Below, piece after piece: positions 4,201 to 64,000 of a stretch of DNA of 64,000 bases (position 1 is its first letter; each line of letters starts with the position of its first letter). The stretch lies in the IMG/VR virus record IMGVR_UViG_3300025838_000022, positions 58,798-122,797 of that record, one strand, 5' to 3'. The notes under the pieces were generated by a model that saw nothing but the letters and a program-made list of their open reading frames with translations, ran no database searches and had not been told where the DNA came from. Position numbers and translations under genes: made by a program. The DNA comes from a virus. Taxonomy: Duplodnaviria; Caudoviricetes.

Positions 4201-4435
4201 AGCATTGGACCCAAATGTCTACATTTCTGGAGTCAGTGTTGTCCCATACTACAAGCAGAACGCTTATTACGCCGGTCTCGATATCAACTACCTTGGAAAT
4301 GGTAAGACAAACGAATGGGAATCGCGTGTCAACGTCGCTAATAAACCATACTTCCAGCTAAACAGCAATTATTACCCGACAAAGTTTGCAATCAACAACA
4401 TTGCCAGTACGGTGACACCCTACATCCTGCATTGA
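1211..4435 (+). CDS. Large Ser/Thr/Asn-rich virion protein (baseplate/tail, beta-sandwich carbohydrate-binding-like domains)
   Basis: 1074 aa, very S/T/N/G-rich; two discoidin-like segments ('YWISNTD..PVVLTYNL', 'YWKSSPQP..VVFFY..VNRLYIDP'); tail-module context. Confidence 0.6.
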   Translation: MSIIPNNTDPLKDYVTPNVNPPLTINGLVFNKIYGYTGVVDALNNTTSSYYNDPTVNTVSTNNGLISLNKNINTYWISNTDFGGNNSAPVVLTYNLVNTIYYNNISFDILNVPCYVELLDNNGNNLPGASTFTIVGGDDIFTRDNWIRLNYDAPTNPYPATVSGTGGTSTFSYPLTGLTSIKVRITRNKQVQTSSAAFGLANVAYSVGLQNFRVKLNVKGLSDIPSAVVSGTQNIITQNGFGFVESYAYTANNQSNIFVNDSTYWKSSPQPTKDSVVFFYAKISDPTPTVVNRLYIDPIYSGCKFNVYYTTQSTSSGTVDPGTFTWTPIQRDFSLRKGIYKIPKISCTYLKFEFTSLVPEAYDLPFDSVNRTINVFPYDVEQYYDNLEQDIANANAVKYSTYGNANLRTQPQNSNQLSASTVFGVSNNTIGSQSNWQSLSQLNTTQLGSFTTTSLSTSSQIFDPSISYKLLDSNGNYNQTSYTQFLQRRFYNTRVHSYASISINQTWHQAYYVGIRFLNFFYEQRYDDLQAIPGQLIAKNATTSGFVSQDVNYVGLNPDDTATTPWFSTIDTFTSFNIAGLTTDWKSFITQGAPLSQDPTILNGPVNGNLSTAQIASMVVGYGTTPQYVGNLGSSSIYSVSGTTSGQTYGIKSIGYNTTNNLLNYYDANFLSTNGNWYGLASTSVTGTSVNWTQTISGATYSGTASGITVSGGSYVAAYNFTLPNVYSPSGTTPWTTQLGSSSLGVVGFASYVPATGINYYFLTNVQSTGTQSVTMYTRFINASTSGVIANTTVTGSTVSLSAASGSTVITATGTNYNSSIPSNTIQVVLSGSAAVPYQVYQAGVFSTPTTQWISPSDRTNMRVSGVARMFLPVTNYGTYRISLYAVNTTGTTVEIAYRVYQGNQLPLNTWFDIEVFSYTTINYTSFYAQVQQTNTAVNEQFYVAMLAPFYHPVRYEYITQSGATNWQPVIYGVNNPNVFISTASGLPASGIQVRMTALDPNVYISGVSVVPYYKQNAYYAGLDINYLGNGKTNEWESRVNVANKPYFQLNSNYYPTKFAINNIASTVTPYILH

Positions 4436-4460
4436 TTTTTAACGAGTTTTGTGCTAGACT
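4432..4460 (+). promoter_or_regulatory. SigA/sigma70-type promoter with extended -10
   Basis: TTGATT-17 nt-TAGACT, with TGC before the -10, directly upstream of the helicase GTG start. Confidence 0.6.
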
Positions 4461-4466
4461 TAGCAC

Positions 4467-6329
4467 GTGGCTTCGGACAAAAAAATCTACATACAGAAAA
4501 GCAAGTTGCTCAACGGGGTGTTGAGGTACAGCTCGCTCAATGACGATTTCAAAAAACTATTCCCTCTAGATGGCTACGGAACGCTTAGAAACCGTGACAA
4601 CATCGATCAATTCCACCAGGCTGCTCAGGACAACGGCTATTCGTTAATCTTTGAAGACGACGCTGCTGAGCAAGATTACAACGAACTACGTGAATGTAGC
4701 ACAACCCCATATGAGGTACGTAGCCCGTTCCTGGATGATCACCAGCTTTTCCCATTCCAGCATGTAGGGCTTAATTACGTATGGAAAAGGCTTCACTCAG
4801 ATAACCCACGCGTTTTGGTGCAGTGGGACACTGGTGCCGGTAAGACTTTGCTGAGCTGCTTGACAAGCCAAAAATTATATGATATGAGCGACGTCGATCT
4901 CATTTTGGTGTTCTGCAAAAAGATCAAGCAGTACGACTGGGAGCAAGAGTTCCGTCGGATGACACACCTTGATGTGACCCGTGTGCCAGAGAAGATGACT
5001 CGTCGCAACCGTCACATGTTCTACAAACAAACCAAGGCCAATGTGCTCGTCCTCAACTACGAGAAGGTTAGGAATGGTAGCCTGACCAGGGTAAAAGGAC
5101 AGAGAAAAAAATCTATGTCTTACGACCGCACGGACCTTCTCCAAGTGCTAGAATTAGTTAAAAACAAAAAAGTACTAATCATCATCGATGAAGCACAAAA
5201 GATCAACAGCGGAGCAAGTCTCCTCGGTGAAGGATTCTTCGAACTAATAAATAAGTCCGAAGGACAGATGATGGCGTTAGCCCTAACAGCTACTCCTTAT
5301 ACCACAAGTCCTCTTAACATTCGTAACATCTTCTCAGTGGTTGATCCAAACATCCCAGAAGTAAGTGACATGAAACGTGATGTATTCAAACGTTTCTATG
5401 GCAAAGAGTTTGGTATGTTCAACAACGGTTTTGTCCAGGAACTGTATGTAAAAGAATGGGATAAAGCAAAGCTACCCCTCCTTGGCAAAAAACATGAGAA
5501 CTGGACTCATATTGCTATGAAGAGTGACCCGATCATCTCTGCTCAGTTCCCAGAAAGTATCCCAAAGAAGATCGTTTACGAGCTCTCAGAGGTGGACCGT
5601 GCAATCTACGATTGGGCTGAAGAACAAGCTCGAGAGCGTTACAACCCAGATAATCCTGTAGCTAACTGGGCATATATTGATACCCTCCGTATGGTATGCA
5701 ACACCTCAGCTGGTTTAAGAAACAGCAACGGTAAGTTCGCTAAGGAAATCGTAGACATGTTTGGTGCTGACATCAGTATTGAACACAGTGCAAAGTACCA
5801 GCTCATTGAGAGCAACCTCGAGGCTTATATCGAAGCCGGTGACAAGGTGGTTCTGTTCACTTTCTGGACCAATGGTACCTTGTTCCCATACCTGGAAGCT
5901 CTTCAGAAAAAGTTCCCAGATATCCCAGTGCTACCTATTTGGGGTGTTGGCATGGATAGTGACACCGTTACAAACAACATTAAGACTTTTAACACGGTCA
6001 AAGGACCGGCCATTCTGATCACTAGTGACGTTGGCCAAGAAGGACTAAACCTTTATGCCCCGTATCTATGGAATATTGAAGTACCAAGAACTTACTCGGA
6101 CTACAAGCAAAGGGCTAATAGAATCAACCGAGCAGACTCTAAAAGCAAGGGAATTAGCCACACTTGGATTTATCGAGCGGTGGCTGCTAACACGATTGAA
6201 GAGCGAGCAGATGCCAAAATCTTGCGCCGACGAGACGAAGCAGAAGCAATTCGCGGAGTAGTTGACGAGAACGTCGACATGTATGATACAATTGACCTAA
6301 CCCCACGAGGGTTTCTATTTGGAGACTGA
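4467..6329 (+). CDS. SNF2-family (SF2) helicase
   Basis: Motifs: WDTGAGKT (I), IIIDEAQ (II), LTATP (III), SDVGQEGLNL (V), QRANRINR (VI). Confidence 0.9.
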   Translation: MASDKKIYIQKSKLLNGVLRYSSLNDDFKKLFPLDGYGTLRNRDNIDQFHQAAQDNGYSLIFEDDAAEQDYNELRECSTTPYEVRSPFLDDHQLFPFQHVGLNYVWKRLHSDNPRVLVQWDTGAGKTLLSCLTSQKLYDMSDVDLILVFCKKIKQYDWEQEFRRMTHLDVTRVPEKMTRRNRHMFYKQTKANVLVLNYEKVRNGSLTRVKGQRKKSMSYDRTDLLQVLELVKNKKVLIIIDEAQKINSGASLLGEGFFELINKSEGQMMALALTATPYTTSPLNIRNIFSVVDPNIPEVSDMKRDVFKRFYGKEFGMFNNGFVQELYVKEWDKAKLPLLGKKHENWTHIAMKSDPIISAQFPESIPKKIVYELSEVDRAIYDWAEEQARERYNPDNPVANWAYIDTLRMVCNTSAGLRNSNGKFAKEIVDMFGADISIEHSAKYQLIESNLEAYIEAGDKVVLFTFWTNGTLFPYLEALQKKFPDIPVLPIWGVGMDSDTVTNNIKTFNTVKGPAILITSDVGQEGLNLYAPYLWNIEVPRTYSDYKQRANRINRADSKSKGISHTWIYRAVAANTIEERADAKILRRRDEAEAIRGVVDENVDMYDTIDLTPRGFLFGD

Positions 6330-6689: not shown

Positions 6690-7127
6690 ATGGCAAATTC
6701 CATCGACTTAAGCTGGCAACGAGAAGCAGCTTGTAAAAACACCTCATTAGTCAACTATGAGTCGTATTACCCATCCCGTGGCAGAACCTCCGAAGGCAAA
6801 GCAAAAGCTTTGTGCAACACGTGCCCAGTACAAAAAGCTTGCTTAGACCACGCTCTAAAATATGAAGACTATGGCTTCTGGGGTGGTGTAAGTGCTAAGG
6901 GCAGAGAGCGTATGCGTAAGGAATTGGGCATTGAATTGATTGATATTAATTACGAATCAATTATCAAATACGCAAAAGAACGCGAAAAAATTCAAGAAGC
7001 TATACAAAATAACAAGATGAAGCGTGGCCCCAAAAGGAAGCCAAAAAACGTTGACAACAGCTTGACATTTGATCCAACAGCTGAATATAATGACATTGAT
7101 TTAACCATTGATGAACTGGAGTATTAA
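6690..7127 (+). CDS. whiB: WhiB-family Fe-S transcription factor
   Basis: W..EAAC...C..CPV...C..HAL....GFWGG: four Cys plus the G[FV]WGG turn. Confidence 0.92.
   Translation: MANSIDLSWQREAACKNTSLVNYESYYPSRGRTSEGKAKALCNTCPVQKACLDHALKYEDYGFWGGVSAKGRERMRKELGIELIDINYESIIKYAKEREKIQEAIQNNKMKRGPKRKPKNVDNSLTFDPTAEYNDIDLTIDELEY
7062..7091 (+). promoter_or_regulatory. SigA-type promoter for the glycosylation cassette
   Basis: TTGACA-18 nt-TATAAT inside the 3' end of whiB, upstream of the GT4 gene. Confidence 0.65.
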
Positions 7128-36665: not shown

Positions 36666-37011
36666 AAAAAGCAGAAAACAAGAAGTCATCCGTGGAAAGA
36701 TGACCTGGCAGATACTCGAGCGTCTTCTCAATAACTACTGGGAATGGCAAGAGGTATACCGCACAACAGGTAACCCGGAATTACAGCTTCTTAACGGTGT
36801 CACCGTAAACATTTATGACATCCTCAAGGGGATTGACAAGCTGCCGCCGAGACAAAAGCAGGCAGTTGTATTATCATGTTTAGAAAACCGTAAAGAAGTT
36901 GAAGTAGCTAGAATCATGGGCTTTACCAAGTGGTCATCTCAGGTTGGTATGTACAAGAGAAAAGCCCTACAACAACTATGTAACACGATATGGGCTAATG
37001 AGAATGACTGA
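36649..37011 (+). CDS. Sigma-70 region-4-like HTH protein
   Basis: 'IDKLPPRQKQAVVL.......EVARIMG......V.....KAL..L'. Confidence 0.78.
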   Translation: MGNTPRKSRKQEVIRGKMTWQILERLLNNYWEWQEVYRTTGNPELQLLNGVTVNIYDILKGIDKLPPRQKQAVVLSCLENRKEVEVARIMGFTKWSSQVGMYKRKALQQLCNTIWANEND

Positions 37012-50083: not shown

Positions 50084-52248
50084 TTATACTTCTACTGTTG
50101 CATCCTCCATGTTGATAAGGTTGAGACGTTTGCCACAAGCGGGGCACCATGCGAACATGAGTTCCTTTTTGCGGGAGGTTGCTTCGACAAGCGTATCACA
50201 CTCATCGATGTCGTCGCAAACGTAGGTAAACTTGGTCCATTTATCCATTACTCTTCCTCCTTGTTTCCGGTTACACTGTAACCCTTCTCTACTACAAACC
50301 AGTCGTCGTTCCATCCGTCGACCCATTCTGGACTTGACTCATCCGGCTCAGGGTGGTTGGCATACAACCAATCCCACCCTTCCTCAAAGCTGTCAAACTC
50401 AATACCATCGAACAGGATGTTGTTCATCCAGTCACGGATAAGATACTTACTCATTGTGCTCCTTATCTTGTTTCTACATCATTGTTTAAGATCCACTCAC
50501 GAACATCATCGTATGTTCCTTCTGGATCTTCTGCCATTGCTTGATAAAGATCTTCAGGTAGATCATGAACATTGAAGATAAGCAAGTTAGTTGCGTCTCC
50601 CCAATTGCCATCAGCAGCTAGATAGATCATCTCTTGATCCATTATTCTTCCTCTTCTTTTTCTAACTCAAGGGTAAGCTCAAACCACAGCTCACCAATGT
50701 CTACGCCGAGACTGCACTCGTACCATTCTACTGCATCTGACCACTCTGGAAGAGTGAGCCCACGACTCTCGCAGAACTCAGTGAACTGGCCTTGATCCCA
50801 CCAGTCTACCATGAGCTCTTGCTCGGGTTGGTATCGAGATTGCAACACCTCGATAATCTTACTTACTTGCACTATATCTCCTCTTCTGCTTCTGTGATAG
50901 TCCATTCATCCCAATCGATATTGTCCCACCAGAAGTCAGACTCTGTTGACTTGTCAATCAGTTGCTGACGATCCAGCCAATCATTTAATTTCTCATTTGC
51001 TTCTTCAGGACTGTTTGCCTTAATAGCAATGTCCATAGAAACTCTTGTGTAATACTCTTTCATTATACCTCCCAGCATTCATCGCACGTACCATCATCAC
51101 ATTCGTCACATGGGTGCTTTAATGGAGTATCTAACTCCATACCACATGTTAAACAAATAGGATATTTCTTACTCATTATGCCTCCTCTACTTGTTCAAAG
51201 CGCCAGTCAGCAAACTCCCAATAATATGGTGATGTTAAAGACGCATCAGCCTCAGACAAATGATCCATCATATCTTGAGCTGCTTGTTCTAACTCTTTAG
51301 GGTCAGTTGAATCAACGTGGAACTCAATCTCTACCGTTATTCTAGTTACTGTTCCTGGTTTTTCCCATTCTTCAATAACCTCTTCAACATCTTCTACTGT
51401 TTGTATTGCTTTCTTCTTAGATGCGTAAGCCACTATTCCTCCTCAGTATGTGTACAACATGAACCACAATCGCCACAGTCGCCACAACGACCATCACGGC
51501 TTGCTAGCTCATAAGCATCACCACAGGTGTCACACTCACCTAGTTCTTCAATGTCATCCATCATGCTTCCTTCCCTTCTTCTATTGTGAACTCTTCGTCC
51601 GCCAGGAATGCGTAAACGCGTTTGAGATTATGGATAGCGTGTTCAAAACTACCATTTCTCTCCGCATCTTTAATGCACCACCTAGTTAAGACAATTGCTG
51701 TTTCTAATGTTTCTGCATCCATTATTCCTCCTTTAGGAAATTAGTTAGTGGTTCGCCTGCAAAGTCCTGCATTGCTTCTTCTGTACCACAAGGTGAACAG
51801 ATACGTGATTTGTTGTCTAACCTAGACAAGGCGGGAAACCCTGTGTAGATTTGCTTACAACGCGGGCAGTTCTTTGGCTCATTGACCTTGTCATACAATG
51901 CTGCTTGCATTTGTATGTGTAGATCACCGAGGAACCCACGGAGCTCCATGTCCGCAGTCATCTCAGCATCTTCCATGTCAGCTTCTATAACCTCTAGAAG
52001 ATAACGCAATTGTTTCTCACTCAGATTCATTATTATCCTTTACTTGGTACCACATCATCTTGCCTACTTGGCTACCCAACTCACTATAAACTAACTGGCG
52101 AGCTGTTTTCTCAGCATCTTCCTGAGTCTCTGCTTCCAACACTACGGTTAACCCGCATGTTACTTCATATACTTTCATAGTTCTTCCTCCATCATATCGA
52201 TTACTTCATTGAGTTGGTCACAACGATCTAGTAATTTCTCAATCACTA
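50084..52248 (-). other. Cluster of about a dozen small, mostly acidic early-type ORFs
   Basis: Tightly packed ORFs (e.g. 50248-50454, 50872-51063, 51176-51433, 51722-52030, 52017-52178) with GGAG/AAGG RBSs. Confidence 0.55.
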
Positions 52249-52304: not shown

Positions 52305-52556
52305 TTAGACATACTTCATTCCTTTCTCTCGCTTGCGTTTAGATATGCGTCGTTCTTTGGGAGCCTGACCCCCATAGATACCATCCTTAATGCTGTTATC
52401 TAATGCATAGTCAAGACATTGTTTCTTAATTATACAAGCATTGCATATTTCCCTAACTGCTTTCATGTTTGCAATAGCAGTAGGACCTTTCTCGATAAAG
52501 AACATGTTTACATCTTTACCTCGACAGTTGGCTTGCTCACGCCATTCTTCACTCAT
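52305..52556 (-). CDS. whiB: Second WhiB-family transcription factor
   Basis: WREQANC...MFF...CNAC...C..YAL...GIYGG...ER. Confidence 0.9.
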   Translation of the reverse strand: MSEEWREQANCRGKDVNMFFIEKGPTAIANMKAVREICNACIIKKQCLDYALDNSIKDGIYGGQAPKERRISKRKREKGMKYV

Positions 52557-52565
52557 ACTTGCTCC

Positions 52566-52907
52566 TTAATTTCCATAGATACTTACAAACTCATCGAATG
52601 TAAGTTCAGGGCCGGAATGTCCATTGTCTACAACAGTAATTGTGCTGTCGTTATAATCAACACGTACTAAACGCCATGTGTCACCACGCTCACCAAGGCT
52701 AATACCATAGCCAGTTTCTTCCATGACTTCATCTTTGATCATCTGTGAGAAGATAATGCGGTTGAGGTACTCGTCGTCATCCCAACGACTACGACCCCTG
52801 TCCAAAGCTTTGGCTACAACCCAAGGCAATCCTTCAGCGCCCCAATGCGTATACAGAAAGATACTACCTTCTGACATAACTAGCTCTACTTGTCCACGGT
52901 CACCCAT
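52566..52907 (-). CDS. Conserved phage hypothetical protein
   Basis: 'MGDRG....IFLYTHWG...RWDD.EYL.RIIF..M...G.GI'. Confidence 0.65.
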   Translation of the reverse strand: MGDRGQVELVMSEGSIFLYTHWGAEGLPWVVAKALDRGRSRWDDDEYLNRIIFSQMIKDEVMEETGYGISLGERGDTWRLVRVDYNDSTITVVDNGHSGPELTFDEFVSIYGN

Positions 52908-52961
52908 GTTCTTACTACCTTTCTTGTTTGTTTACTGCGTGTTAGCTATTTGCTAACGTTT

Positions 52962-53510
52962 CTACCACGAACTGCGGTAGTAGACATCAACCCCATGCCT
53001 AATAGCATCACGGGCAATTTCAATAACTGCTAAATCTTGTTCCTTGTACTCATCACTAGAGTCATCACCAAAGAAGAACCCTGTTGTTGGTGGCAATTCA
53101 CCTAATTTAACTGCCATCTCTAGTTGGTCAAGGTCACCCATGTTCAACCTTATATACTGGTTGTTGAACATACGTTTCTTATTAAGAGATGCAGCAGCAG
53201 AGATGTACTGTTGTTCAAGGATTAATTGTTGCATTTGATCTTCCATTGTTGCTTTCTCAAGCAGTTCAGGAGTAGCCTTATCCTTATCAACCTCACCAAC
53301 AACCTTAGCAACTACAGAGTCAGGGAAATCTGTCTGACCTTTATAGCCTTGAGCATCAGCCTTGATATTGAATAGTTTCTCCATCCAACCTTCAAGGTTA
53401 GGATGCTTACGCCAAGTGCAGATACCAAGGTAACCAGCTTCTGGTGATACATCAAAATCGGTGTTATCAGGGTGCGCCTGCACACCGTATAGGTACTGGT
53501 CAAGTCCCAT
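52962..53510 (-). CDS. Conserved phage hypothetical protein
   Basis: 'MGLDQY...WRKH..L.GWM...LP.T.GFFFG...YY.SSW'. Confidence 0.7.
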   Translation of the reverse strand: MGLDQYLYGVQAHPDNTDFDVSPEAGYLGICTWRKHPNLEGWMEKLFNIKADAQGYKGQTDFPDSVVAKVVGEVDKDKATPELLEKATMEDQMQQLILEQQYISAAASLNKKRMFNNQYIRLNMGDLDQLEMAVKLGELPPTTGFFFGDDSSDEYKEQDLAVIEIARDAIRHGVDVYYRSSW

Positions 53511-53515
53511 AATGT

Positions 53516-54157
53516 TTACTTACTTTCTTCTGGTCGAGGGCAATCCCCAAACCAATCATCCATGTCGTCTACAAAGCTACAAAGACAGTTGTCTGCTATG
53601 TCTCGTGATTCGTAGTCGGCATGGCTCGCGGGTATATCCCACTCTCCGACAACATTTAACGTGTTGCCATCGTAATTAAGTTCACCACCCCATCCTTGTT
53701 CTTCTTCATAAAACCAATCAAACGTAACTTTTAGTTTAAGTTCTTCGATCTTATTAGCAAGTGCTTCAATGATTTTATCTGGTGGTGACCAAGCAGTATT
53801 AAAGTTGTAAGTAATACTGTTTAAATCGTCATCGATATCATCCATATCAAATGTATCTGATTGCTCAACATTATAAGCGTTCCACTTGGTACCCCAGTTG
53901 CGGATATTCCAATCGTACCAATGATTAGTAGAATGAAGCAATCTATCTTTAAAGTCTTCATACTTAGGTTCTACACCATAGTATTCATCCCATACAGATT
54001 TATCTGGTGCTATTAAACTGTAAAAATTAAAGGATGAAATACTATTATCACCATTAATGTGTTGGCATTCATGAGGCATGTTAAGCAGCAACTTTAATTT
54101 TGTAAGGTCTCTAAAGTTGCCAGTTAATGTTACTGTGTTATATACATGATTGGGCAT
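53516..54157 (-). CDS. DUF1281/YubB-like protein
   Basis: 'MPNH..N', 'WYDWNI.NWGTKWN', 'F.TAWSPP'. Confidence 0.75.
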   Translation of the reverse strand: MPNHVYNTVTLTGNFRDLTKLKLLLNMPHECQHINGDNSISSFNFYSLIAPDKSVWDEYYGVEPKYEDFKDRLLHSTNHWYDWNIRNWGTKWNAYNVEQSDTFDMDDIDDDLNSITYNFNTAWSPPDKIIEALANKIEELKLKVTFDWFYEEEQGWGGELNYDGNTLNVVGEWDIPASHADYESRDIADNCLCSFVDDMDDWFGDCPRPEESK

Positions 54158-54170
54158 GCATATTCCTTTC

Positions 54171-54563
54171 TTACTCGGTTACAATCTCAATTACGTCATC
54201 ACCCGCAATTGCTTTCTTCATAACATCGTTGGCTCGTTTAAGAACCATAGCAGCCTTATCAAACGTAAGACCAAGCGTGTGGCCTTTGTTGTCAACACCA
54301 CCAGTGATGATAATGTCACCAACAATAAGATCAGTCATACCATATGAGTCAACCCATAGAGCAGAACCAAACGCATTGATTTCTGGTTCATTAACCAACT
54401 TACCTTCATCGTCAATCCACATGTCGACATCCAATGATGGCAGGTGAATGCATTGGATTGTACCTCCTCCAATGGCTGCCTTAATTGTCTCATATGATTT
54501 AGACTCATCAAAGTCAACAACATCAAGGTTGTTGTCTGAGGTAACGGTAATTGCATACTTCAT
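54171..54563 (-). CDS. DUF3846-family protein
   Basis: 'IGGGTI..I.......MWIDDEGKL...N......D.IVGDIIITG'. Confidence 0.78.
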   Translation of the reverse strand: MKYAITVTSDNNLDVVDFDESKSYETIKAAIGGGTIQCIHLPSLDVDMWIDDEGKLVNEPEINAFGSALWVDSYGMTDLIVGDIIITGGVDNKGHTLGLTFDKAAMVLKRANDVMKKAIAGDDVIEIVTE

Positions 54564-54592
54564 TTTGTGTCCTAACTGTTTGTGGGTTTAAT

Positions 54593-54622
54593 GGAGCAGT
54601 TTCACCACATGCCCCAGGTGGT
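54593..54622 (-). ncRNA. H-type pseudoknot leader element
   Basis: - strand ACCAC-CT-GGGGCA-T-GTGGT-GAAAC-TGCTCC. Confidence 0.65.
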
Positions 54623-54632
54623 TACTACATTA

Positions 54633-55262
54633 CTACTGAGGCCAACCGATTTGAATTTCCTTACCATTGATAACAATGGTCTTAGGCTGCTGAACAACTA
54701 CAGGTTCAACAACCTCAGGTTCCTTAGCTGCCTCATCAGTCATACTAGACGCCTGAGCAATAATGTTAATCATCTCTTGAACATCATCTCTTGTTGGCGT
54801 CGTTGGCCAACTAGGTGTTGATACAACTGGAACAGTTGCAACTGCTGGAGTGATAGCAGTTAATGGTGGTGGAGTAGCAGGCGGAGTGTATCCCATCTTG
54901 CCTACTCGCACACTGCTAGTGTTGCTAGCGTTAGGCATCCATACCTCTGCACGGCCATCGTCAACACACCTAGCAAGCATGCTTTCCAAGAACCATTTAC
55001 GCGCTTCAGTCTGTGTGTCAAAGCATTCACGCACCGTATTAACTAGGTGCTCAATGGTTGCCTTAGCGATCTCAGGCGTTTCAAATGTCAGGGCGGCGAA
55101 TGTATGATTAGCTCGACCCTTTGGATGCCATGATTTTCGTATCTCAACTTTGCATGGTACCTTGTTACTCACCGTGAAAGCGTAGTCAATCACGTCACGG
55201 GTGCGGTTGGAGTTCCAACCACGACCGTCCTTTTTCTTAAGCCAAACCATGTCTTTTGACAC
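54633..55262 (-). CDS. Hypothetical protein (paralog of 56078-56491) with P/T-rich tail
   Basis: Shared 'RK....AN......F.....AK......FDT..E...WF' core. Confidence 0.6.
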   Translation of the reverse strand: MSKDMVWLKKKDGRGWNSNRTRDVIDYAFTVSNKVPCKVEIRKSWHPKGRANHTFAALTFETPEIAKATIEHLVNTVRECFDTQTEARKWFLESMLARCVDDGRAEVWMPNASNTSSVRVGKMGYTPPATPPPLTAITPAVATVPVVSTPSWPTTPTRDDVQEMINIIAQASSMTDEAAKEPEVVEPVVVQQPKTIVINGKEIQIGWPQ

Positions 55263-55459
55263 AGATTACCTTCCTACTTGACCTGTTAATAATAGCAGGC
55301 GGTCAATTCTGCCTACGCTACTTGCGTATTAATACTCACCATCTTTAATTGCTTTGAGCAATACATGTGTGTATGACCATGCTTCCTGGTCTTGCATTGC
55401 AAGCAAAAGCATCTCAATATGCGTAAGCATATCAATTACTTCTTGACGTGGTATATCAC

Positions 55460-55645
55460 TCATACATTCTCCTTACTTGGGGTGCAGTCACCATTCTCAA
55501 TGAGCGCCATTGCCATACGACCGTAATGCCCTTGCAAACGCCAGGCCATACCGTTATTAATAAGCTCTTGGAACAGCTCAATGATTTCTAGTCCATTGAG
55601 TTCATCCTGCTCATAAGCAATAATTTTACTAGTTAAATCAATCAT
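55460..55645 (-). CDS. Conserved small phage protein
   Basis: 'IIAYE..EL......LFQELI..G.AW.LQGHYGR.A..LIE.G'. Confidence 0.65.
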   Translation of the reverse strand: MIDLTSKIIAYEQDELNGLEIIELFQELINNGMAWRLQGHYGRMAMALIENGDCTPSKENV

Positions 55646-56031
55646 TCGGTCTCCCAACCATACTCACGTAATACTTTCTTTTGTAAATCTTTATGCATTA
55701 CTTCATTCATACTTTTAAACTCTTGCTCATTGTTTGGTAGTTGTGATATAAAATCAATATCAAACACACCTGCCAAGTTATTGGTAAACACAACAAGGTT
55801 ATTAAGGATCTCGTTGCTTGCATTAATAGCAAGAGGAATAGACTGTTTATATGCATCTGATTCAATAAATGATTTAAACTGCTCAGGAATTTCACCTAGT
55901 AACTCTTGCCTGTGTACCTCAAGAGTTGTGTTGACAGTAAAGAATACTTTAACAAGGTCAACTAGCTTTAGTAGTTCTTCCTTGATAATAGCAAGCTTTA
56001 CTTCATCTGACAATTGGATTTCATTATCCAT
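55642..56031 (-). CDS. Hypothetical protein
   Basis: ORF with an AGAAAG RBS. Confidence 0.55.
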   Translation of the reverse strand: MDNEIQLSDEVKLAIIKEELLKLVDLVKVFFTVNTTLEVHRQELLGEIPEQFKSFIESDAYKQSIPLAINASNEILNNLVVFTNNLAGVFDIDFISQLPNNEQEFKSMNEVMHKDLQKKVLREYGWETE

Positions 56032-56077
56032 GATATTCTTTCTGACCTTGTTGTTTTACCTGATAAGCGGTCAATTA

Positions 56078-56491
56078 TCAGATTGGGTAACCAGCATGGA
56101 TTGAACTTGGCAAAGAAGTTCTTTGTTCTGGTAAAGGAGCATCTTTATAGTCATTTAATTGTTTAATAAACCATTCTTCTCCTTCTTTAATAGTATCAAA
56201 CATAATAGTTGAAGCATATAATAAAGAATCTAAAAAAGATTTTGCAACATAACTGCTTCTAAATTCTTTTCTCATAACAACAACGTTAGCTACTTTCTTA
56301 CCTTCAGCACATTTTCTGACTATAAGAACAGCGTTCTTATTGATAATGCCACCATGCTGACCAGCTTTTAAAGTAAAAGATAAATCTACTTGGTGTGAAT
56401 ACCAACGGTGATTTGGTTTGGTCCTTGCTGTCCAAATCAAATCATCATACGCATAAGAACGTCTCCATTGTAATTGTCTACCTACCATCAT
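56078..56491 (-). CDS. Hypothetical protein (paralog of 54633-55262)
   Basis: Shares the paralog core motif; AT-rich coding sequence. Confidence 0.55.
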   Translation of the reverse strand: MMVGRQLQWRRSYAYDDLIWTARTKPNHRWYSHQVDLSFTLKAGQHGGIINKNAVLIVRKCAEGKKVANVVVMRKEFRSSYVAKSFLDSLLYASTIMFDTIKEGEEWFIKQLNDYKDAPLPEQRTSLPSSIHAGYPI

Positions 56492-56720
56492 TCTCCTTGG
56501 GTACAAACATATTGATTGCTTCTTCAATTGCTCGCTTAGCTATTTGCTTATTAACTTCTCCATTCTCTGAATCAATAGCCATCATCATGCCATCCATGTC
56601 ATTGGCTAATCCCTGAAGTAACTCTTCAAACTTTTTGTGAAACAACTTTGATTGTTCAGGGTCATCAAACGTAATGTTAATTTGCAAGTTAGGTCCTTGT
56701 TGGTTGCATTCAATCTGCAT
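56478..56720 (-). CDS. Hypothetical protein
   Basis: ORF immediately downstream of the putative large ncRNA. Confidence 0.55.
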   Translation of the reverse strand: MQIECNQQGPNLQINITFDDPEQSKLFHKKFEELLQGLANDMDGMMMAIDSENGEVNKQIAKRAIEEAINMFVPKENDGR

Positions 56721-56739
56721 AATACTTCTTTCTTACTAG

Positions 56740-57497
56740 TGGATTAGGTGGGCCCGTTGGACGTTCGGGTGGAGCCCATACCCTACACACCGTAACCTCG
56801 GTGTCTCAGTCCAGCTCAGTGCTGGCAACCCCGTCTATTCAATAGGCTTCAGGTTACCTACATAAGCTTCCCCTTATGTTGAGTCCGTGTCTGCATCACA
56901 TCGCGCATATGCTGTCCATGCAGACACAAGAAAGGGGGACAGTTTAACCACATGTCCCAGGTGGTTTGAGCGTCTTCACCGGTACTCGCGCTCACTAGCA
57001 CAATGGTTCCTATCTCTACCTACCAATAAGTATAGATTCTCACGCTCCTCTGCGTGTGTTCTTTAAGGCATCCACTAATCTCCTGCACCGGCTTCCCCCA
57101 TGTGCTGAGTGTGTTAACTTATAATCTCGTAGGATCATATTCCGGTACATCATAAGCTAACAACAGTTCCCGTACACACAATAAAGCATGTACGGGATCG
57201 CCAGTTAAGCTAGCGCAGCTACCACTTTAAAGCCGGTGGCCATGGCATAAGTGGACAGGTTTAAGGAGAGCCTCCGATCCTATGCACACTTCCTTATGCA
57301 CTAAGCATTCTTTAACGCAGTTTTTGATCTGCGAGTACATAGTTCTCTGACCATAGCACCATCCAAGCAACCATACTCCGTATCAATGGCCTAGCAGCCC
57401 CGTCTTTTCAAGAGGTACGGCTGTCTCCGGATAGGGTTTTGACGATAACCCTCCACATCGTCTTACTACTAACTACGCTTGTGAGAAACGCGTGAAG
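56740..57497 (-). ncRNA. Putative large structured non-coding RNA (about 750 nt)
   Basis: No ORF of 60 aa or more on either strand; more than 12 helices, long-range pairings and 3 pseudoknots; G.U pairs favour the - strand. Confidence 0.65.
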
Positions 57498-57665
57498 TTA
57501 GTCGTTAGAGCTAGTGCCCAATACTGCGCGGGCATTGTTGATCATGTCGTCGTAGCTAGGCATTGAAGACAAGTCAATGCCCATAGGCTTAAGCGCATTA
57601 GTAATCTCTTCGATTACATAAAGCAAGTTCAAGCCAAGCTTTCGATAACCTTCTGCTTCAGTCAT
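57498..57665 (-). CDS. Hypothetical protein
   Basis: Probable ATG at 57665 after an AGAAGGTGAG RBS. Confidence 0.45.
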   Translation of the reverse strand: MTEAEGYRKLGLNLLYVIEEITNALKPMGIDLSSMPSYDDMINNARAVLGTSSND

Positions 57666-57666
57666 G

Positions 57667-58044
57667 TTACTCACCTTCTTTCTCGAGCCAGTGGTCCTGG
57701 TGACCACAGCCATCCTTGGTGCCATCACACTCAGGGTGGTGCTCATTGTGGATAGCAAACGGCGCACCAAGAACCTTGATGGCTTCCTTCTGCATCATGT
57801 CATACAGAATGTTGACCTGGTTAAGCGCAAGGCGCAGACCCAGAGGGAACACAACGGAGAGCTTCTCCAAGTCTTCCTTGGATACCTCATCCTCGGTAAG
57901 GATGTTGGCTACACCAATGAAAGGCTGAAGCACAGTACCCATCTTGGTACCCCAATCCTTGATGGCATTGAGGAACTCTGCGTGAGCAACACGTGCAAGT
58001 GTTGCATCGTCAAGTGCAATGTCACCGAAGTTAAAGTCTTCCAT
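57667..58044 (-). CDS. Hypothetical protein
   Basis: ATG at 58044 after AAGGAG. Confidence 0.6.
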   Translation of the reverse strand: MEDFNFGDIALDDATLARVAHAEFLNAIKDWGTKMGTVLQPFIGVANILTEDEVSKEDLEKLSVVFPLGLRLALNQVNILYDMMQKEAIKVLGAPFAIHNEHHPECDGTKDGCGHQDHWLEKEGE

Positions 58045-58160
58045 GATATCTCCTTGTTGTTTATTGTTGCACCTATTTGGTGCATCTGGGTGTAGCCACA
58101 CCTCATACGTGTGTGACTACACCCAGGCACTTGGGTATCTAGTTACCCAAAGACTTCGTG

Positions 58161-59624
58161 CTACAGACGACCAAGAAGCGCCTTGCGGATAGGACCGGCA
58201 GGCTTGTTGATAAGCTTACCAGCCTTGAACATCTTGACCGCTTCCTCGACGGAAGGGATCATGATGATCTTGTGCTTCTTGACCAGCTGAGCGCACTGGA
58301 GGATAATGTCGTCGTTCTGACCGCCACCGTCAGAGGTGACTTCACCATCTGAGACCCAGACGATTGGCTCGTTGGGGTGACGGTTCTTGATACCCCACAC
58401 CAGAGCAGGACCGTCGACGCCGTTGCCAGCACCACCGATATTTGGGATCTCACGTACACGCCAGCCACGTTTGGCGAGGAGCCACGCATTGGCAGAGGTG
58501 TAGTGAGTCTGACTGTATGCGAGGATGGTCGCAGCAGGCGCTGCCTCGACAATCGCTTCGATGTCTTGCTGTGACAGAGACATAGAACCTGAGATGTCGA
58601 CGATGACCATGCCACCCTTGACGCGTACCTTATTGGTAAAGATACGACGCTCGGGGTCAGTGTACCAACGGCTAACGTTGCCGAGCTTACGACCGACCAA
58701 GGCAGGCTTGCGCTTACGATTCATGAACCCCTCGACCTGGACAGACAGTGGAAGCGTGTCGTCAATGACAAGCTCCGCAAAGTCTCCATCCTCGTCGTGT
58801 GGGAACTCGTAGTCGTCAGGCAAGTCGTCCTCGAGTGGAGTCTGGTCAGGGTCAAGACGGTTAGCATCTTGCTCCGCCTGACCATACTCCTCAAGGATCT
58901 TGTCTTCCTCCTCCTGGCGCTGTTGGGCAACGCTGCTAGGAGAACGCCTACCGTTGGCATAGTTGGCAATCTCAGAGGCTGCAACAAGAGTGTTGTTGTA
59001 ACCCCTCGGACCCACTACGTCGCTGCTGTAGTGGTATGGCATGGTAGAGCCAAGGTCACCCGGTGTACCGTCAAAGATACTAGTGAGACGACCAGCAAGC
59101 TTACGCAGCATGTCGCTCCAATCTGGGTTCACAGAGCGTACGCCAGCAGCAAACGAATCGAATGCTGACTTGTTGGCGTAGTTACGCACGGTGAATTCAA
59201 CTGCATCTTCCCAGTCGTTAGGGCTGCCAGCAGTTGCCATACGGATACCTGACTTCTTCTCCGCACCGGTGGAGTCAAGCTCAAGACCCTTGATCTTGGC
59301 AAAAGGCTCAGTAACAGCGTTGATACGAGCCTCCTCCGCAAGATTGAGAAGAGCCCTGGTGACACCATTGTGCTTGTAAGACTCAGCCACTACCTTGGCA
59401 ACCTCCTCAGTCTGAAGACCGACGCGGGCGCGGATGAGCTCACGCAGCTGCGTACGACGGGACCAGTCGTCCCCCCGAAGGGGGACGGCCAGTACCTTCG
59501 CAGCCCAGTCGACACCTACACCCATCTGGCCCGTAGTGGGCTCGACAGTCCAGGTAGTCGTCTCGGCTATGTCGTCACGGAACGCAGTGATTGCCCCTAC
59601 AAGGGGCTTCTGCTCGTCAGCCAT
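58161..59624 (-). CDS. VWA (MIDAS) domain protein, partner of the MoxR ATPase
   Basis: 'IVDISGSM' (DxSxS), 'WVSDG'; N-terminal peptidase-like region with 'EEARIN'. Confidence 0.8.
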   Translation of the reverse strand: MADEQKPLVGAITAFRDDIAETTTWTVEPTTGQMGVGVDWAAKVLAVPLRGDDWSRRTQLRELIRARVGLQTEEVAKVVAESYKHNGVTRALLNLAEEARINAVTEPFAKIKGLELDSTGAEKKSGIRMATAGSPNDWEDAVEFTVRNYANKSAFDSFAAGVRSVNPDWSDMLRKLAGRLTSIFDGTPGDLGSTMPYHYSSDVVGPRGYNNTLVAASEIANYANGRRSPSSVAQQRQEEEDKILEEYGQAEQDANRLDPDQTPLEDDLPDDYEFPHDEDGDFAELVIDDTLPLSVQVEGFMNRKRKPALVGRKLGNVSRWYTDPERRIFTNKVRVKGGMVIVDISGSMSLSQQDIEAIVEAAPAATILAYSQTHYTSANAWLLAKRGWRVREIPNIGGAGNGVDGPALVWGIKNRHPNEPIVWVSDGEVTSDGGGQNDDIILQCAQLVKKHKIIMIPSVEEAVKMFKAGKLINKPAGPIRKALLGRL

Positions 59625-60382
59625 TACAGCGACACTTCCGTGCTAAGGGTGCCGATACGGATGGCGTCGATGATGGGCTCAGCCATCTTACCGAACACCA
59701 GCTTGGCAGCACGCTCAGTGGTGAACAGAGGGCTGTTACGCAGCGTCTGGAATTCCTTCCAGGCACGGAGCGAAGCACGCTCACCGGGACGACCAGCGAC
59801 GATGGTGGCAGCCAGCATGCGCAACTCTGGCGGCAATGCAGAGACCAACGCAGCTGGGTGAGCAGCGTCAATCTTGATTGCAACCGGGAAGCGGTCACGC
59901 AGCGGACCCTCAATCTCGTTGGGGTCCTCGAAGTTGGTGGTCATGATGGCAGAGAAGCCCTCACGCGGTAAGTGAACCTCACCGGTGTAAGGGTTCTTCC
60001 AGACCGCCGACTCCGGGCTGTCAAGGAACTTCATCAGCGTGGTGACAACGTCACCGCTGGCACGGTTGATCTCGTCAACAACGAGACGACCGCCAACAGT
60101 ACCGTCACCATCCCAGGTGATTGGCCCGATGCCCTTGACGTAGTTGAAACCACCACGCTCGTTGGGAAGCATAGAACCAACGATGTCAGCGTTGGTCATG
60201 TCCTCGGAGCAGAGGAGGGTCTCGAACCCAGCTGCATTGATGTGCAGGGTCTGGGCTGAATACGTCTTGCCAGTGCCGGGGGGACCGTAGAGGATGACAC
60301 GCTTGCAACCTGCAGCGAGCACATCGTTAAGGTCAATGAAGCACTGGGGAATCGGGATTCCCTCGATGAATTCAGTGGTCAT
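59624..60382 (-). CDS. MoxR/CbbQ-like AAA+ ATPase
   Basis: GPPGTGKT, 'VVDEINRA', 'MTTN', 'LRDRF'; coupled (TAATG) to the VWA gene. Confidence 0.88.
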   Translation of the reverse strand: MTTEFIEGIPIPQCFIDLNDVLAAGCKRVILYGPPGTGKTYSAQTLHINAAGFETLLCSEDMTNADIVGSMLPNERGGFNYVKGIGPITWDGDGTVGGRLVVDEINRASGDVVTTLMKFLDSPESAVWKNPYTGEVHLPREGFSAIMTTNFEDPNEIEGPLRDRFPVAIKIDAAHPAALVSALPPELRMLAATIVAGRPGERASLRAWKEFQTLRNSPLFTTERAAKLVFGKMAEPIIDAIRIGTLSTEVSL

Positions 60383-60452
60383 AATATGTTTCTCCCTGTG
60401 TTTAACGGTGCTTGGGAACACCGGGCACATACCTGGGTTGGTATGTGAACCG

Positions 60453-60523
60453 TACTGCAGGTGGGAATTGAACCCACAACCTACCTGGTTAACCAGGTTG
60501 CTCTACCATTGAGCTACTGCAGT
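60453..60523 (-). ncRNA. tRNA-like RNA with a non-canonical 6-nt palindromic anticodon loop
   Basis: ACTGCAG TA GCTC AATGGTA GAGC A ACCTG GTTAAC CAGGT AGGTT GTGGG TTCAATT CCCAC CTGCAGT A. Confidence 0.8.
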
Positions 60524-60529
60524 GACCTA

Positions 60530-61003
60530 CTACTTGGCTATAGCCTGGATCAGCATGGCCTTCGACTTGTTGTCGAATGAGATGGTTGCTGTCTTGTAAC
60601 CACGCTTGATAGCTTCACGGTACATTCGAGTACGCATGTTGTCATGTCCGAACTTCTTGAATGGAATCAACGATTCAAGGTCGGAGTACGGGACAACATG
60701 GGTCTGACCGTCAAGGATGGCGTCGAGCCACACCTTGTGCTGCTTCCAACGGATGTGCGTTGCTGCACGCATTGGCTTCTTGTGAGTAGCCTTGACTGCG
60801 TTGACTGCCTTGACAATCTCGTCAACAGCAATCGCCCGTGGAGCTGGTGTTGGTGCGGGAGTCTCGTTGTGACTGCTCGTCTTGAATGATTCGATGAGCT
60901 CGATCACCTTGATAACTTCACCGCGAGTGGCAGGACGCTCAAGTACCGTGTCAGTTGCAGCCAACACGCTCTTGATTGTCTCACTCATCTTGTTAACGCT
61001 CAT
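60530..61003 (-). CDS. Hypothetical protein
   Basis: ORF with an AAGGAG RBS. Confidence 0.6.
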   Translation of the reverse strand: MSVNKMSETIKSVLAATDTVLERPATRGEVIKVIELIESFKTSSHNETPAPTPAPRAIAVDEIVKAVNAVKATHKKPMRAATHIRWKQHKVWLDAILDGQTHVVPYSDLESLIPFKKFGHDNMRTRMYREAIKRGYKTATISFDNKSKAMLIQAIAK

Positions 61004-61149
61004 GGATTTCTCCTTGATGTTTGCCCTTACTGGTTTACTACAGAGTAGCAGGGGTGATGACTACTCCGATGCACACACGAATAGCCATGATACTCGTGTG
61101 TACATCGCAGTAGCCGGGCAATACAACACCCGGCCCTGCTTGTTGCTAA

Positions 61150-61467
61150 CTACAAGAACTCGACGGGGTCACGGTCCTCAAAGATTGCTTCGAGGTCAGC
61201 GTACGTATAGTCCTCAGGGTTCTCCTGATAACGCTTGAGTGCAGCCTCAATGCGTTCATCCTGGTTACTATCTCCGTCATCTTCCTCGTCATCGGAAATG
61301 TTCTCGAAGATAGGAACAGCCCAGTCAGGAACCCATACTTCGTCCTGACCATAAGCAATTGATTCCTTAGTTGCTTCGTGCAAGCACTCTAGAAGCGCCC
61401 TCTGGACATTGTTCCAACGTTCAGCAAGTTCCTTACTGATCGGTGGGTTGTCAACTGGTTCACTCAT
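61150..61467 (-). CDS. Acidic hypothetical protein
   Basis: ATG at 61467 after AAGGAGG. Confidence 0.6.
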   Translation of the reverse strand: MSEPVDNPPISKELAERWNNVQRALLECLHEATKESIAYGQDEVWVPDWAVPIFENISDDEEDDGDSNQDERIEAALKRYQENPEDYTYADLEAIFEDRDPVEFL

Positions 61468-61523
61468 TGCACCCTCCTTAGGTGAGTGGGCCCGTTTCGG
61501 TGGAACCCATACCGCCTGTGTTG

Positions 61524-62075
61524 TTACAGGTTGCAAACGTACTCGTCTGCACTCCACTCGGGAGTAAAGCCGTTGTTACGTTTGTAATACCACATCGCTA
61601 CCTTTGACTGTTCATCACCGGTAGCCTGTGAAGCTAACGCTGGTAAACCAGGTATGTTCGCCCGTGCGTAGTCCCAAATGTATGGGACGAACTGATACCA
61701 ACCAGCAGCACCACTGTGTATCTCAACAGAGTGCAGATGGTTACGGCTCTCCTGATAACGAATGCAGTCAAACTTTTCTTGCACTGTCATCGGCAATCGC
61801 CGCAACGGGTCAGTTGCATCGGGCCATGTGGCTGTTGGATCGCTGGATTCAGTGTTCCATCGCTGTAAAGGTCGAGCTACCACATGTGGTTGGCTCATCA
61901 CATACGCTTGAAGATTTAGCGGTGTGACATCCTGCACCTGAAATGCTGGGGCAGGTAACCTTGGTGTCACAAAACTAACAACGCGTTGGGTATGACCCGC
62001 AGCGTGTACGTTATTGATGTAGACACCTACAACAATAAAAGCACTGGATAACAGCAAACTTGTCAGTTTACGCAT
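61524..62075 (-). CDS. Secreted Rpf-like / lytic transglycosylase
   Basis: Signal-peptide-like N-terminus (MRKLTSLLLSSAFIVVGV...HAA); 'CIRYQES', 'GAAGWYQF...W', 'A.QAT..EQ..VA', 'W...C'. Confidence 0.75.
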   Translation of the reverse strand: MRKLTSLLLSSAFIVVGVYINNVHAAGHTQRVVSFVTPRLPAPAFQVQDVTPLNLQAYVMSQPHVVARPLQRWNTESSDPTATWPDATDPLRRLPMTVQEKFDCIRYQESRNHLHSVEIHSGAAGWYQFVPYIWDYARANIPGLPALASQATGDEQSKVAMWYYKRNNGFTPEWSADEYVCNL

Positions 62076-62189
62076 GTACCCTGTACCTTTCATGTTAGTT
62101 GGTGGGATTCTGTGCTGGCTCCCACCGGGCCAGTTTACATCACGTGCGTGAGATATGTGTGGAGTTAGGTTCCACACACAGGGGCGGGG

Positions 62190-62486
62190 CTATGCCCACT
62201 CCTGTTTCTCACCCACGTAACGAGCATAGATGGTGTGAGTACCGTCTTCCATACGTCGTGATGTCACCTGGTAGGGCAACAGCTTACGGTTGATACCCTT
62301 CAATGCTTTGATGTTGATTCCACAAAGAGTGCAAAGCACAGTGGGGCTGGTAGGTGATTTGAGTTGAGTTGAGTACTCGAACCAGACACCTGGGTTGCTC
62401 ATGAGCACCTCACGACGCTCTTGAGCATTGTTGCGTGAACCACGCTTGATTGGGCCGGGCGCAGCCTGCTTCATTGTAATGGCCAT
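62190..62486 (-). CDS. Hypothetical protein
   Basis: 'L.SNPG.W.....YARYVG'; strong RBS. Confidence 0.6.
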   Translation of the reverse strand: MAITMKQAAPGPIKRGSRNNAQERREVLMSNPGVWFEYSTQLKSPTSPTVLCTLCGINIKALKGINRKLLPYQVTSRRMEDGTHTIYARYVGEKQEWA

Positions 62487-62578
62487 GATAACTCCTTATC
62501 AGTTGGCAATCTGTAGCTTACTTAGCTACGTTCTCAACCCCACCACTCACTATGGAGTGGTGAGGCCTTTGAGAATTG

Positions 62579-62854
62579 TTATTCGGCGTCACCGTCTTCT
62601 AACATCTGTGCCCAGATGCCAAACATCTCGTCGACGTCCTGTCCGATGGGCCGCTTGTACGCCTTGATGCGATCGAGAATCTCTCTCGAACGCCCCATGG
62701 CTTGATCCATTATCTCGTCGCTGAATGGAAGTTCGCTATCCATTGATTTGATTGCTTCGTTCATGGCAGACATCGTTGTCTCAAACGTACCCAGGATTGT
62801 ACGAATATCTTCATCCGTAAATCCTGCGTCAATTAAACGTTGGGTGTTAAGCAT
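62579..62854 (-). CDS. Hypothetical protein
   Basis: ATG at 62854 after AGGAG. Confidence 0.55.
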   Translation of the reverse strand: MLNTQRLIDAGFTDEDIRTILGTFETTMSAMNEAIKSMDSELPFSDEIMDQAMGRSREILDRIKAYKRPIGQDVDEMFGIWAQMLEDGDAE

Positions 62855-63314
62855 GTTGTCTCTCCTGTATTGCTTTGATGTCACCCCAGCCGTAAAGGTC
62901 TGGGTGGTACAGTGCTTGTCCTTGATTGAACATCACATGTTTGAATGACATCCCAATCTTGCCCGGTATGTCCTGACAAGTCGGAAGTTGTATGATGTCG
63001 AGGTTAAGTTGCTCCTCGCGTACCACACGCTTGAGATTGTGTAAGTAGCCCATAACAATCTCAAGAGGATTACTTACAGCGCAGACATTCAGTGCTGGAA
63101 TGTCCTGCTTGAGAACTGGTAGGTTGTGCTCCATAACCCAGGTACCACCTGAGTCTGCAGCCTTCAGCATGATTGCTGTGTAGACGTCCCAGCAGTCGAT
63201 GATTGCTAGATGGAAGTGGTACAGCTTGTCGAACCGGTACTTGAAACAAGTTGGTTCGAGCATGTCTGTGCCCTCTTCCATGGATATGTCATGTATAGTT
63301 AATTCATCACTCAT
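62847..63314 (-). CDS. Hypothetical protein
   Basis: 155-aa ORF. Confidence 0.6.
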   Translation of the reverse strand: MSDELTIHDISMEEGTDMLEPTCFKYRFDKLYHFHLAIIDCWDVYTAIMLKAADSGGTWVMEHNLPVLKQDIPALNVCAVSNPLEIVMGYLHNLKRVVREEQLNLDIIQLPTCQDIPGKIGMSFKHVMFNQGQALYHPDLYGWGDIKAIQERQHA

Positions 63315-63368
63315 GGCGTGACTCTTTCTTACTAAATGTGTAGCTATTTGCTACGGGTACTGCTTTTG

Positions 63369-63665
63369 TTACTGCACCTTGCGCTTTGAGATACGCACTA
63401 AATGCGCTTCTTGACCCATCTTCTCACCGTCGATGATGTCATACTCGATGAATGAAGCGACGTAGTCACCATCTTCATCAAGATCCCACCCCCTGCTAAT
63501 GGGCAAGACTTCCTTGCCGGGCCGGGGGGTTGAGTACCACTTCTCCACCGCAATTTGGGCATCCTTCAATTCCTTGAATAGACCAAACCAATGGATGGAC
63601 AAGATATTGATACCCTGTTCGTGAGCGTGGGCGCTAACCGTTGTTTCTACTGCCCATACCTTCAT
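63369..63665 (-). CDS. Hypothetical protein
   Basis: ORF after AGGAGG. Confidence 0.55.
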   Translation of the reverse strand: MKVWAVETTVSAHAHEQGINILSIHWFGLFKELKDAQIAVEKWYSTPRPGKEVLPISRGWDLDEDGDYVASFIEYDIIDGEKMGQEAHLVRISKRKVQ

Positions 63666-63871
63666 CAGCATTCCTCCTGTTCAATTGTTTCATCATCAGT
63701 GCAACAACAAGGCGTTATCGTACCATCTTCAAGCTTGTAGTACTCACAGTCACAATAACTGCAGTAATGTTTTTCTACAGCATCAGGATATGGATGAAAT
63801 GGTTCTTTCTCATCTGGCATTGACAAACCACCGAACGAATCCGGGGCACTGCTTGGTTTTACTACTTCCAC
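63665..63871 (-). CDS. Small Cys-rich protein
   Basis: GTG start after AAGGAG; CSYC...CCC. Confidence 0.5.
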   Translation of the reverse strand: MEVVKPSSAPDSFGGLSMPDEKEPFHPYPDAVEKHYCSYCDCEYYKLEDGTITPCCCTDDETIEQEEC

Positions 63872-64000
63872 AGGGATCTCCTTGTGTTTGTTTACTGCTA
63901 CCCTACTTGGGTATTGTTACTTCTTCCATTGTATTTCTCCTTGTTTGTTTGAGGTGGGTTAGTCCTCGTTTGACCCATGAGACCCACGAACAAATGTTCC

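Follow-up and report, generated by a model that had tools for sequence, protein, structure and literature searches.

What do short hairpins do that share a loop, differ in their stems and recur in front of the early genes of an uncultured virus? The question is raised by a window of 64,000 nucleotides, i.e., the whole stretch of DNA analysed here (bases 58798-122797 of the 122,797-base virus record IMGVR_UViG_3300025838_000022, which is judged 82% complete). From ~48.9 kb onwards, the genes of the window lie on the minus strand, are mostly small and mostly lack a known family; judged from this gene content, we infer that they are early genes, and refer to them as the early arm. Six hairpins with the loop AAATA or AAGTA (AARTA in the DNA, AARUA in the transcript) occur in this arm and are called h1 to h6 (Table 1). 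We describe them below as real, selected and strand-specific RNA elements that mark a set of early leaders, and weigh what such a mark may do for the virus, the source of which is best explained as a roughly 150-kb uncultured phage of freshwater actinobacteria.

Six hairpins with a common loop in the early leaders

The preliminary description of this DNA had listed six minus-strand hairpins, perfectly paired in spite of their differing stems and closed by an AARTA loop. A script scan of the window confirmed these six at their positions and gave exactly this number, all on the minus strand and none on the plus strand, each with five or six perfect Watson-Crick pairs. On both strands of the entire record, no further AARTA hairpin with a stem of at least 5 bp was detected, and patterns relaxed to admit G.U pairs, one stem mismatch or the wider loop ARRTW yielded no convincing extra member. 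In contrast to the six observed, 300 first-order Markov simulations of the record gave 0.69 hairpins on average and three at the maximum. The bias in strand and position that the preliminary description had proposed to test is thus complete in this record: minus strand only and intergenic only. AAGTA and AAATA are also the commonest loops among the 221 perfect hairpins (stem of at least 5 bp, 5-nt loop) on the minus strand. The AARTA pattern was picked post hoc, and its independent repeat comes from a related contig, L009, described below.

Table 1. Positions of the hairpins and associated RNA features (window coordinates unless a contig is named)
Feature	Position	Strand	Description
h1	63899..63913	-	TACCC-AAGTA-GGGTA; 27 nt before GTG start at 63871
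h2	63340..63354	-	GTAGC-AAATA-GCTAC; upstream stop 14 nt before; ATG at 63314, 25 nt on
h3	62513..62529	-	GTAGCT-AAGTA-AGCTAC; 26 nt before ATG at 62486
h4	58068..58084	-	TGCACC-AAATA-GGTGCA; 23 nt before ATG at 58044
h5	55314..55328	-	TACGC-AAGTA-GCGTA; begins at first base after upstream stop codon; 51 nt before GTG at 55262
h6	52941..52957	-	GTTAGC-AAATA-GCTAAC; upstream stop 4 nt before; ATG at 52907, 33 nt on
Strong hairpin without U-tail	62531..62575	-	ends 1 nt before h3; whole-leader fold -44.4 kcal/mol, z = -5.5
Two hairpins after vWA gene	58086..58151	-	second (58086-58126) ends 1 nt before h4
tRNA-like minihelices	carriers L010, L012, L016, L017, L022, L023, L025, L026	sense	e.g. 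L022:12080-12152, L012:9446-9518

The six hairpins stand close before start codons, as had been noted; the distance, then put at about 25-50 nt, is 23-51 nt by our measurement, with h5 alone at 51 nt and the others at 23-33 nt. The longer leader of h5 is filled by a second conserved structure. On the other side, the gap between the upstream stop codon and the hairpin varies from 0 to 76 nt, indicating that it is the gene downstream to which the element belongs. Script scoring of four leaders (h1, h3, h4 and h6) showed 12-18 unpaired, A/C-rich bases between the hairpin and the Shine-Dalgarno site. Every one of the six was present in both the minimum-free-energy and the centroid fold of its own leader, and the bases after each hairpin were unpaired in the predicted folds. 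The leader of h4, which follows the gene for a 487-aa protein (the vWA gene hereafter), folds at -56.1 kcal/mol (z = -7.7), and its two upstream hairpins show compensatory changes as well as G.U to A-U changes relative to L009.

Conservation and covariation in relatives

L009 is a viral contig that is collinear with the arm at 85% protein identity and represents the same phage as the metagenome contig L021. It carries eight AARTA-type hairpins, every one of them sense-strand and with AAGTA as its loop; six of the eight are orthologous to h1-h6, and the remaining ones are situated upstream of these, past the point ~90 bases beyond h1 at which our record stops. For instance, the orthologue of h1 (L009 4374) is identical in both stem and loop, that of h2 (6041) has AAGTA where AAATA is found here, and that of h3 is located at 6868; in L020, a 97% relative, the loop of h3 is AAATA. 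Across the six orthologous spacers, the stems were identical at 66 of 66 positions and the loops at 27 of 30, all three changes being between A and G at loop position 3, compared with 288 of 347 (83%) for the remaining spacer positions. Loop positions 1, 2, 4 and 5 were unchanged in 24 of 24 cases (approximately p = 0.01 under spacer-like drift). Given this near-invariance within a spacer of only 83% identity, the stems and these four loop positions look to be under purifying selection, with either purine accepted at position 3.

Two slots, set by gene context alone and not by the hairpin, could be followed into relatives with 45-57% identity. The h6 slot (before the MGDRGQVE gene) carries a small pentaloop hairpin in seven of seven distinct sequences, with stems that differ; the four inner pairs are paired in all seven, and five of the six pairs change on both sides. 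Its covariation score was 0.73 versus 0.25 in shuffles, none of 500 reaching the observed value, and pairing was lost when the partner was slid by one to three columns. In the h4 slot (after the vWA gene) of eight relatives, 40 of 40 cells are paired, two pairs change on both sides, and one A-U pair becomes G.U in two relatives (L023 and L010). The loops in this slot of the distant relatives are 3-6 nt long and unrelated to AARUA. Stems thus covary and loops vary among the distant relatives, whereas the loop is fixed within the clade of this phage.

In the same distant relatives, the small hairpin usually starts exactly 2 bases, or an ACCA, after a tRNA-like minihelix composed of an acceptor-like stem of 6-7 pairs and a T arm with a TTCRANT loop, with no anticodon arm. 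We found 26 such minihelices between early genes, all sense and none antisense, and 9 of the 11 pairs of their consensus covary; ARAGORN did not call them as tRNAs. An A-rich leader follows the minihelix and the small hairpin. After other minihelix cassettes, the position equivalent to the hairpin holds GNRA tetraloops (GGGA, GAGA, GTGA, GAAA and GCAA). The minihelix fold exists only in RNA, and its arrays look like tRNA-style punctuation of phage operons. An acceptor stem with a T arm is the smallest fold that RNase P and RNase Z recognise. This phage and L009 have the hairpin alone at these sites, without minihelices.

Wobble pairs, like GNRA loops, are typical of helices formed by RNA. Together with the asymmetric loop, which keeps a constant orientation relative to transcription at all sites, they indicate that the hairpins are RNA elements, argue against an operator in duplex DNA and weaken the case for a DNA-hairpin promoter. 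A search of Rfam with window positions 52500-64000 returned only tRNA, both at gathering scores and at E<=1.

Weighing the possible functions

Our preferred reading, held tentatively, is that the hairpins are 5'-boundary caps that protect or insulate the downstream cistron once the early transcript is cut. They would act in cis as stem-loops of early polycistronic transcripts, each marking the 5' edge of a translation-initiation region in which hairpin, unpaired bases, Shine-Dalgarno site and start codon follow one another. Cutting of the long transcript at a point between two cistrons, or its decay from the upstream side, would place a hairpin at or next to the new 5' end, where it could protect the message that follows against 5'-end-dependent nucleases and hold strongly folded upstream RNA away from the ribosome-binding site. 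Actinobacteria possess RNase J and RNase E. In the distant relatives, the tRNA-processing machinery would be the probable cutter, since two bases separate the hairpin from the tRNA-like minihelix that precedes it; were the minihelix cut behind its discriminator base, the first base of the downstream message would be the one immediately ahead of the hairpin. Where the loop is held at AARUA, as in this phage and its close relative, it may also be read by some factor. Favouring the cap are (i) the number of hairpins (six versus 0.7 expected), (ii) their anchoring to start codons, (iii) the fixed 2-nt spacing to the minihelices, (iv) the stable hairpin 1 nt upstream of both h3 and h4, and (v) the repeat of the pattern in L009, the purifying selection, and the covarying stems and GNRA loops of the relatives.

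Two known systems come closest, and by analogy the element would work most like these. The first is the ompA-type 5'-terminal stabiliser stem-loops of bacterial and phage mRNAs, reportedly described by Emory, Bouvet and Belasco in 1992. As in these, a small hairpin with an arbitrary stem is followed by an unstructured leader and a ribosome-binding site, and in the relatives it stands 1-2 nt from a predicted processing site; unlike these, the loop is conserved within this clade and one operon contains the element at many of its cistrons. The second is the intercistronic C(UUCG)G hairpins of T4, which Tuerk et al. are said to have described in 1988. They too combine a conserved loop with variable stems between cistrons, and the relatives of our phage use hyperstable GNRA loops in equivalent slots; AARUA, however, is not a known hyperstable loop.

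Several points weigh against the cap. Cleavage, protection and the RNA 5' end at the hairpin are things that we infer, and four of the six sites have neither a tRNA-like element nor a strong hairpin upstream, leaving no obvious cutter there. A stem of 5-6 bp is a weak barrier. Of the dozen long spacers in the arm, only some half contain the hairpin, and the rest have pseudoknot-like or other folds. Moreover, loop positions 1, 2, 4 and 5 are fixed at the six orthologous sites, whereas a passive cap needs no fixed loop. The loop is thus more conserved than such a cap requires, and an operator specific to the loop stays a serious rival.

According to this alternative, an RNA-binding protein of the phage or the host reads the AARUA loop, whichever stable stem carries it, and jointly controls translation or decay of the early message set, resembling the T4 gp43 or MS2-type hairpin operators on a regulon-wide scale. 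We consider it possible, if on balance unlikely. The same loop is carried on seven different stems, four of its five positions are unchanged at all orthologous sites within spacers of 83% identity, and its flavour is genome-specific, AAGTA in our phage and AAGTT/AGGTT in L017 and L022. There is also a precedent in the T4 gene 43 operator, where the loop of a hairpin located upstream of the ribosome-binding site is important (PMC3014915). This is the nearest protein-read analogue of the element, being likewise a small hairpin ahead of a ribosome-binding site; it controls, however, one gene and is read by that gene's own product (PMC3014915), whereas the element here is shared by six to eight unrelated genes. 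Nevertheless, the equivalent slots of the relatives do not keep the loop: unrelated loops, including GNRA tetraloops, follow the other minihelix cassettes, and the same is true of the h4 slot with its 3-6-nt loops. The gap of 12-18 nt between hairpin and Shine-Dalgarno site in the four leaders scored makes simple occlusion unlikely, and family searches of the arm proteins gave no candidate binding protein. Among the mechanisms offered in the preliminary description, what survives is a structure-selected, strand-specific leader mark, which may be a site for a translational or post-transcriptional regulator in view of the apparent selection on loop positions 1, 2, 4 and 5; its boxB and promoter versions fare worse, as follows.

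Hairpin-type promoter elements had been among the earlier suggestions. A promoter element, used by a phage polymerase or sigma factor either as extruded single-stranded DNA (N4 style) or as a duplex, is improbable. It would account for many copies each placed 23-33 nt before a start, giving short leaders, for the purine that usually comes next after the stem, and for the position of the first L009 copy, after 450 bp of AT-rich non-coding DNA. Nor is the arm explained by sigma-70-type promoters: the 17 sigma-70-like matches compare with 16.5 expected and none is placed to serve a hairpin, in agreement with the preliminary remark that clear SigA promoters are absent from these leaders. Nevertheless, the G.U wobbles at orthologous sites and the GNRA loops in equivalent slots of relatives disfavour a promoter, and a DNA-level element does not readily account for the constant 2-nt distance, in the relatives, to a tRNA-like fold that exists only in RNA. 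Neither a polymerase (T7-like or multisubunit) nor a sigma region 2 was detected in 123 kb. A search of the record with PF00940 was also negative, but this family matched none of the control genomes and its negative result carries little weight. The pattern TANNNT fits only three of seven distinct sites by inspection. The N4 early promoters are DNA hairpins with 3-nt loops that need a giant virion polymerase. Our element is similar to them as a short hairpin of variable stem ahead of early genes, and different in its 5-nt loop and in that no giant polymerase is in sight (the largest open reading frame (ORF) of the record has 1149 aa, with 18% of the genome unseen).

Antitermination of the lambda type, in which an N-like protein acting at boxB-like nut sites would let RNA polymerase pass terminators in the arm, was the first suggestion of the preliminary description, and is very unlikely. 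The boxB pentaloops of the lambda nut sites are GNRA-like and start with G (GAAAA, GAAGA and GACAA). The likeness lies in a short, 5-bp stem with a purine-rich pentaloop, in the transcript-sense location within an early operon, and in A/G variation at one loop position, as between nutL and nutR; h3 and h4, furthermore, are immediately preceded by strong hairpins, which might act as terminators lacking U-tails. However, the loop here starts with A, is AAATA or AAGTA at all 14 sites of the two phages and is not GNRA-like. No boxA-like block was found upstream in a loop-anchored alignment of the 14 sites, the flanks of which reach 75% only at the closing C and G and at two columns scattered downstream. 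The stems differ among sites, and there are six to eight sites, each 23-51 nt from a start codon, instead of one promoter-proximal site per operon. As for an N-like protein, no arginine-rich small protein is conserved between this record (82% complete) and L009: a basic ORF of L009 is absent from the record, and the arginine-rich N-terminus of a 98-aa protein is apparently not conserved in L009, as judged from the L009 DNA. The element resembles boxB, but is not a member of the boxB family.

A duplex-DNA operator, i.e., 15-17 bp inverted repeats with half-sites about one helical turn apart serving a dimeric repressor, is extremely unlikely, as the half-sites vary in sequence from site to site without loss of perfect pairing, the orientation of the asymmetric centre with respect to transcription is constant at seven to eight independent sites, and the orthologues contain G.U wobbles.

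Further candidates were considered. A kissing-loop partner for AARUA found no support: a 777-nt non-coding region of the arm has one TACTT, located in a stem and at chance frequency, and a TAYTT pentaloop hairpin occurs nowhere else in the genome. A host -10 box within the hairpin was rejected, as TANNNT is present in only three of seven distinct sites by inspection. An in-frame stop in the loop (AAR-TAR) was dismissed because its frame relative to the upstream gene is inconsistent. The flanking motif GCAGTA is not enriched genome-wide (28 versus 30 per strand) and only mildly so in the arm.

The setting of the arm and its wider meaning

The six genes downstream of the hairpins have no Pfam family, and PHROGs assigned them at most to families of unknown function. 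The h6 gene is closely followed downstream by a WhiB-family regulator (PF02467, E 1.5e-18; 52305-52556, minus strand), which supports an actinobacterial host. A MoxR/CobS-like AAA ATPase gene (AAA_5) overlaps the start of the vWA gene, the 487-aa product of which we take to be vWA-like from its sequence. The two genes (58161-60382, minus strand) form the arm's best conserved pair and served to find the relatives. A DNA search of cultured phages gave no relative, tblastn with the vWA protein gave no match, and a leader-plus-loop DNA pattern run over IMG/VR gave only the known relative and one match without a hairpin.

Several further structures were noticed in the arm. A tRNA-shaped gene (60453-60523, minus strand; 59.9 bits as tRNA) has an abnormal anticodon loop and cannot be named by ARAGORN; it is kept in L009 and L020, and two hairpins follow it in the leader of the AAA ATPase gene. 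The 777-nt gap at 56721-57497 (minus strand) has no ORF, no Rfam match and a deep predicted fold (-274 kcal/mol). Pseudoknot-like folds replace the AARUA hairpin in the minus-strand leaders at 54570-54632, 61468-61523, 56740-56790 and 63940-64000, and similar ones recur in L022 and L023. Within a 102-aa ORF, the hairpin TTGTCT-AGGTT-AGACAA (51813-51829, minus strand) has a stem that is different yet paired in L009 (17722) and L017 (4989). Elsewhere in the window, a 136-aa ORF (36832-36978, plus strand) gave a weak Sigma70 region-4-like match of 18.8 bits, below the cut-off.

L009 extends further upstream than our record and contains a 450-bp AT-rich non-coding region (L009:3025-3497) with repeated TGTTTCACGTGAAACA palindromes, at the end of which its first hairpin precedes by 27 nt the gene that opens the hairpin-bearing stretch. 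Akin regions are found in L012-L014, and our record stops before it. This region may be a control region or an origin. L009 also has three genes and one hairpin, including a very basic 94-aa ORF, at L009:4857-5720 that are absent here (window 63662-63676), with the indel junction at an ATGA start/stop microhomology, and a duplicated h1 leader (4362-4457 and 5354-5455). A role of the hairpins as recombination linkers was rejected, as this one indel joins at the ATGA microhomology and not at hairpins. The PeSL cassettes of T4-type phages consist of a strong sigma-70 promoter and a G/C-rich terminator stem (PMC2839356). Like them, the hairpins are short regulatory cassettes repeated before small orphan early genes of a large myovirus, in a region that is variable (indels relative to L009); unlike them, they have neither promoter nor terminator, and the indel examined is not at the hairpins.

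It is attractive to speculate, although we find it rather doubtful at this point, that the early operons of these phages are punctuated by a modular RNA code, made up of minihelices cut by host tRNA-processing enzymes, pseudoknot leaders and capping hairpins, with a dedicated factor that would read the AARUA loop and set the stability or translation of an early regulon. Such a code would parallel the tRNA-punctuation model of mitochondria, and we know of no described phage system with modular RNA punctuation of this kind.

Freshwater actinobacteria are among the most abundant bacteria of lakes, and to our knowledge nothing is known of gene control in their large uncultured phages. An RNA signal of 15-17 bases with a fixed loop on a defined set of early genes offers a clean, testable handle on this control, and sister lineages couple the hairpin to tRNA-like minihelices. 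If cutting at these elements is confirmed, it would amount to tRNA-style punctuation of the messages of a bacterial virus, and the elements would provide short, portable RNA parts to stabilise or insulate cistrons in actinobacteria.

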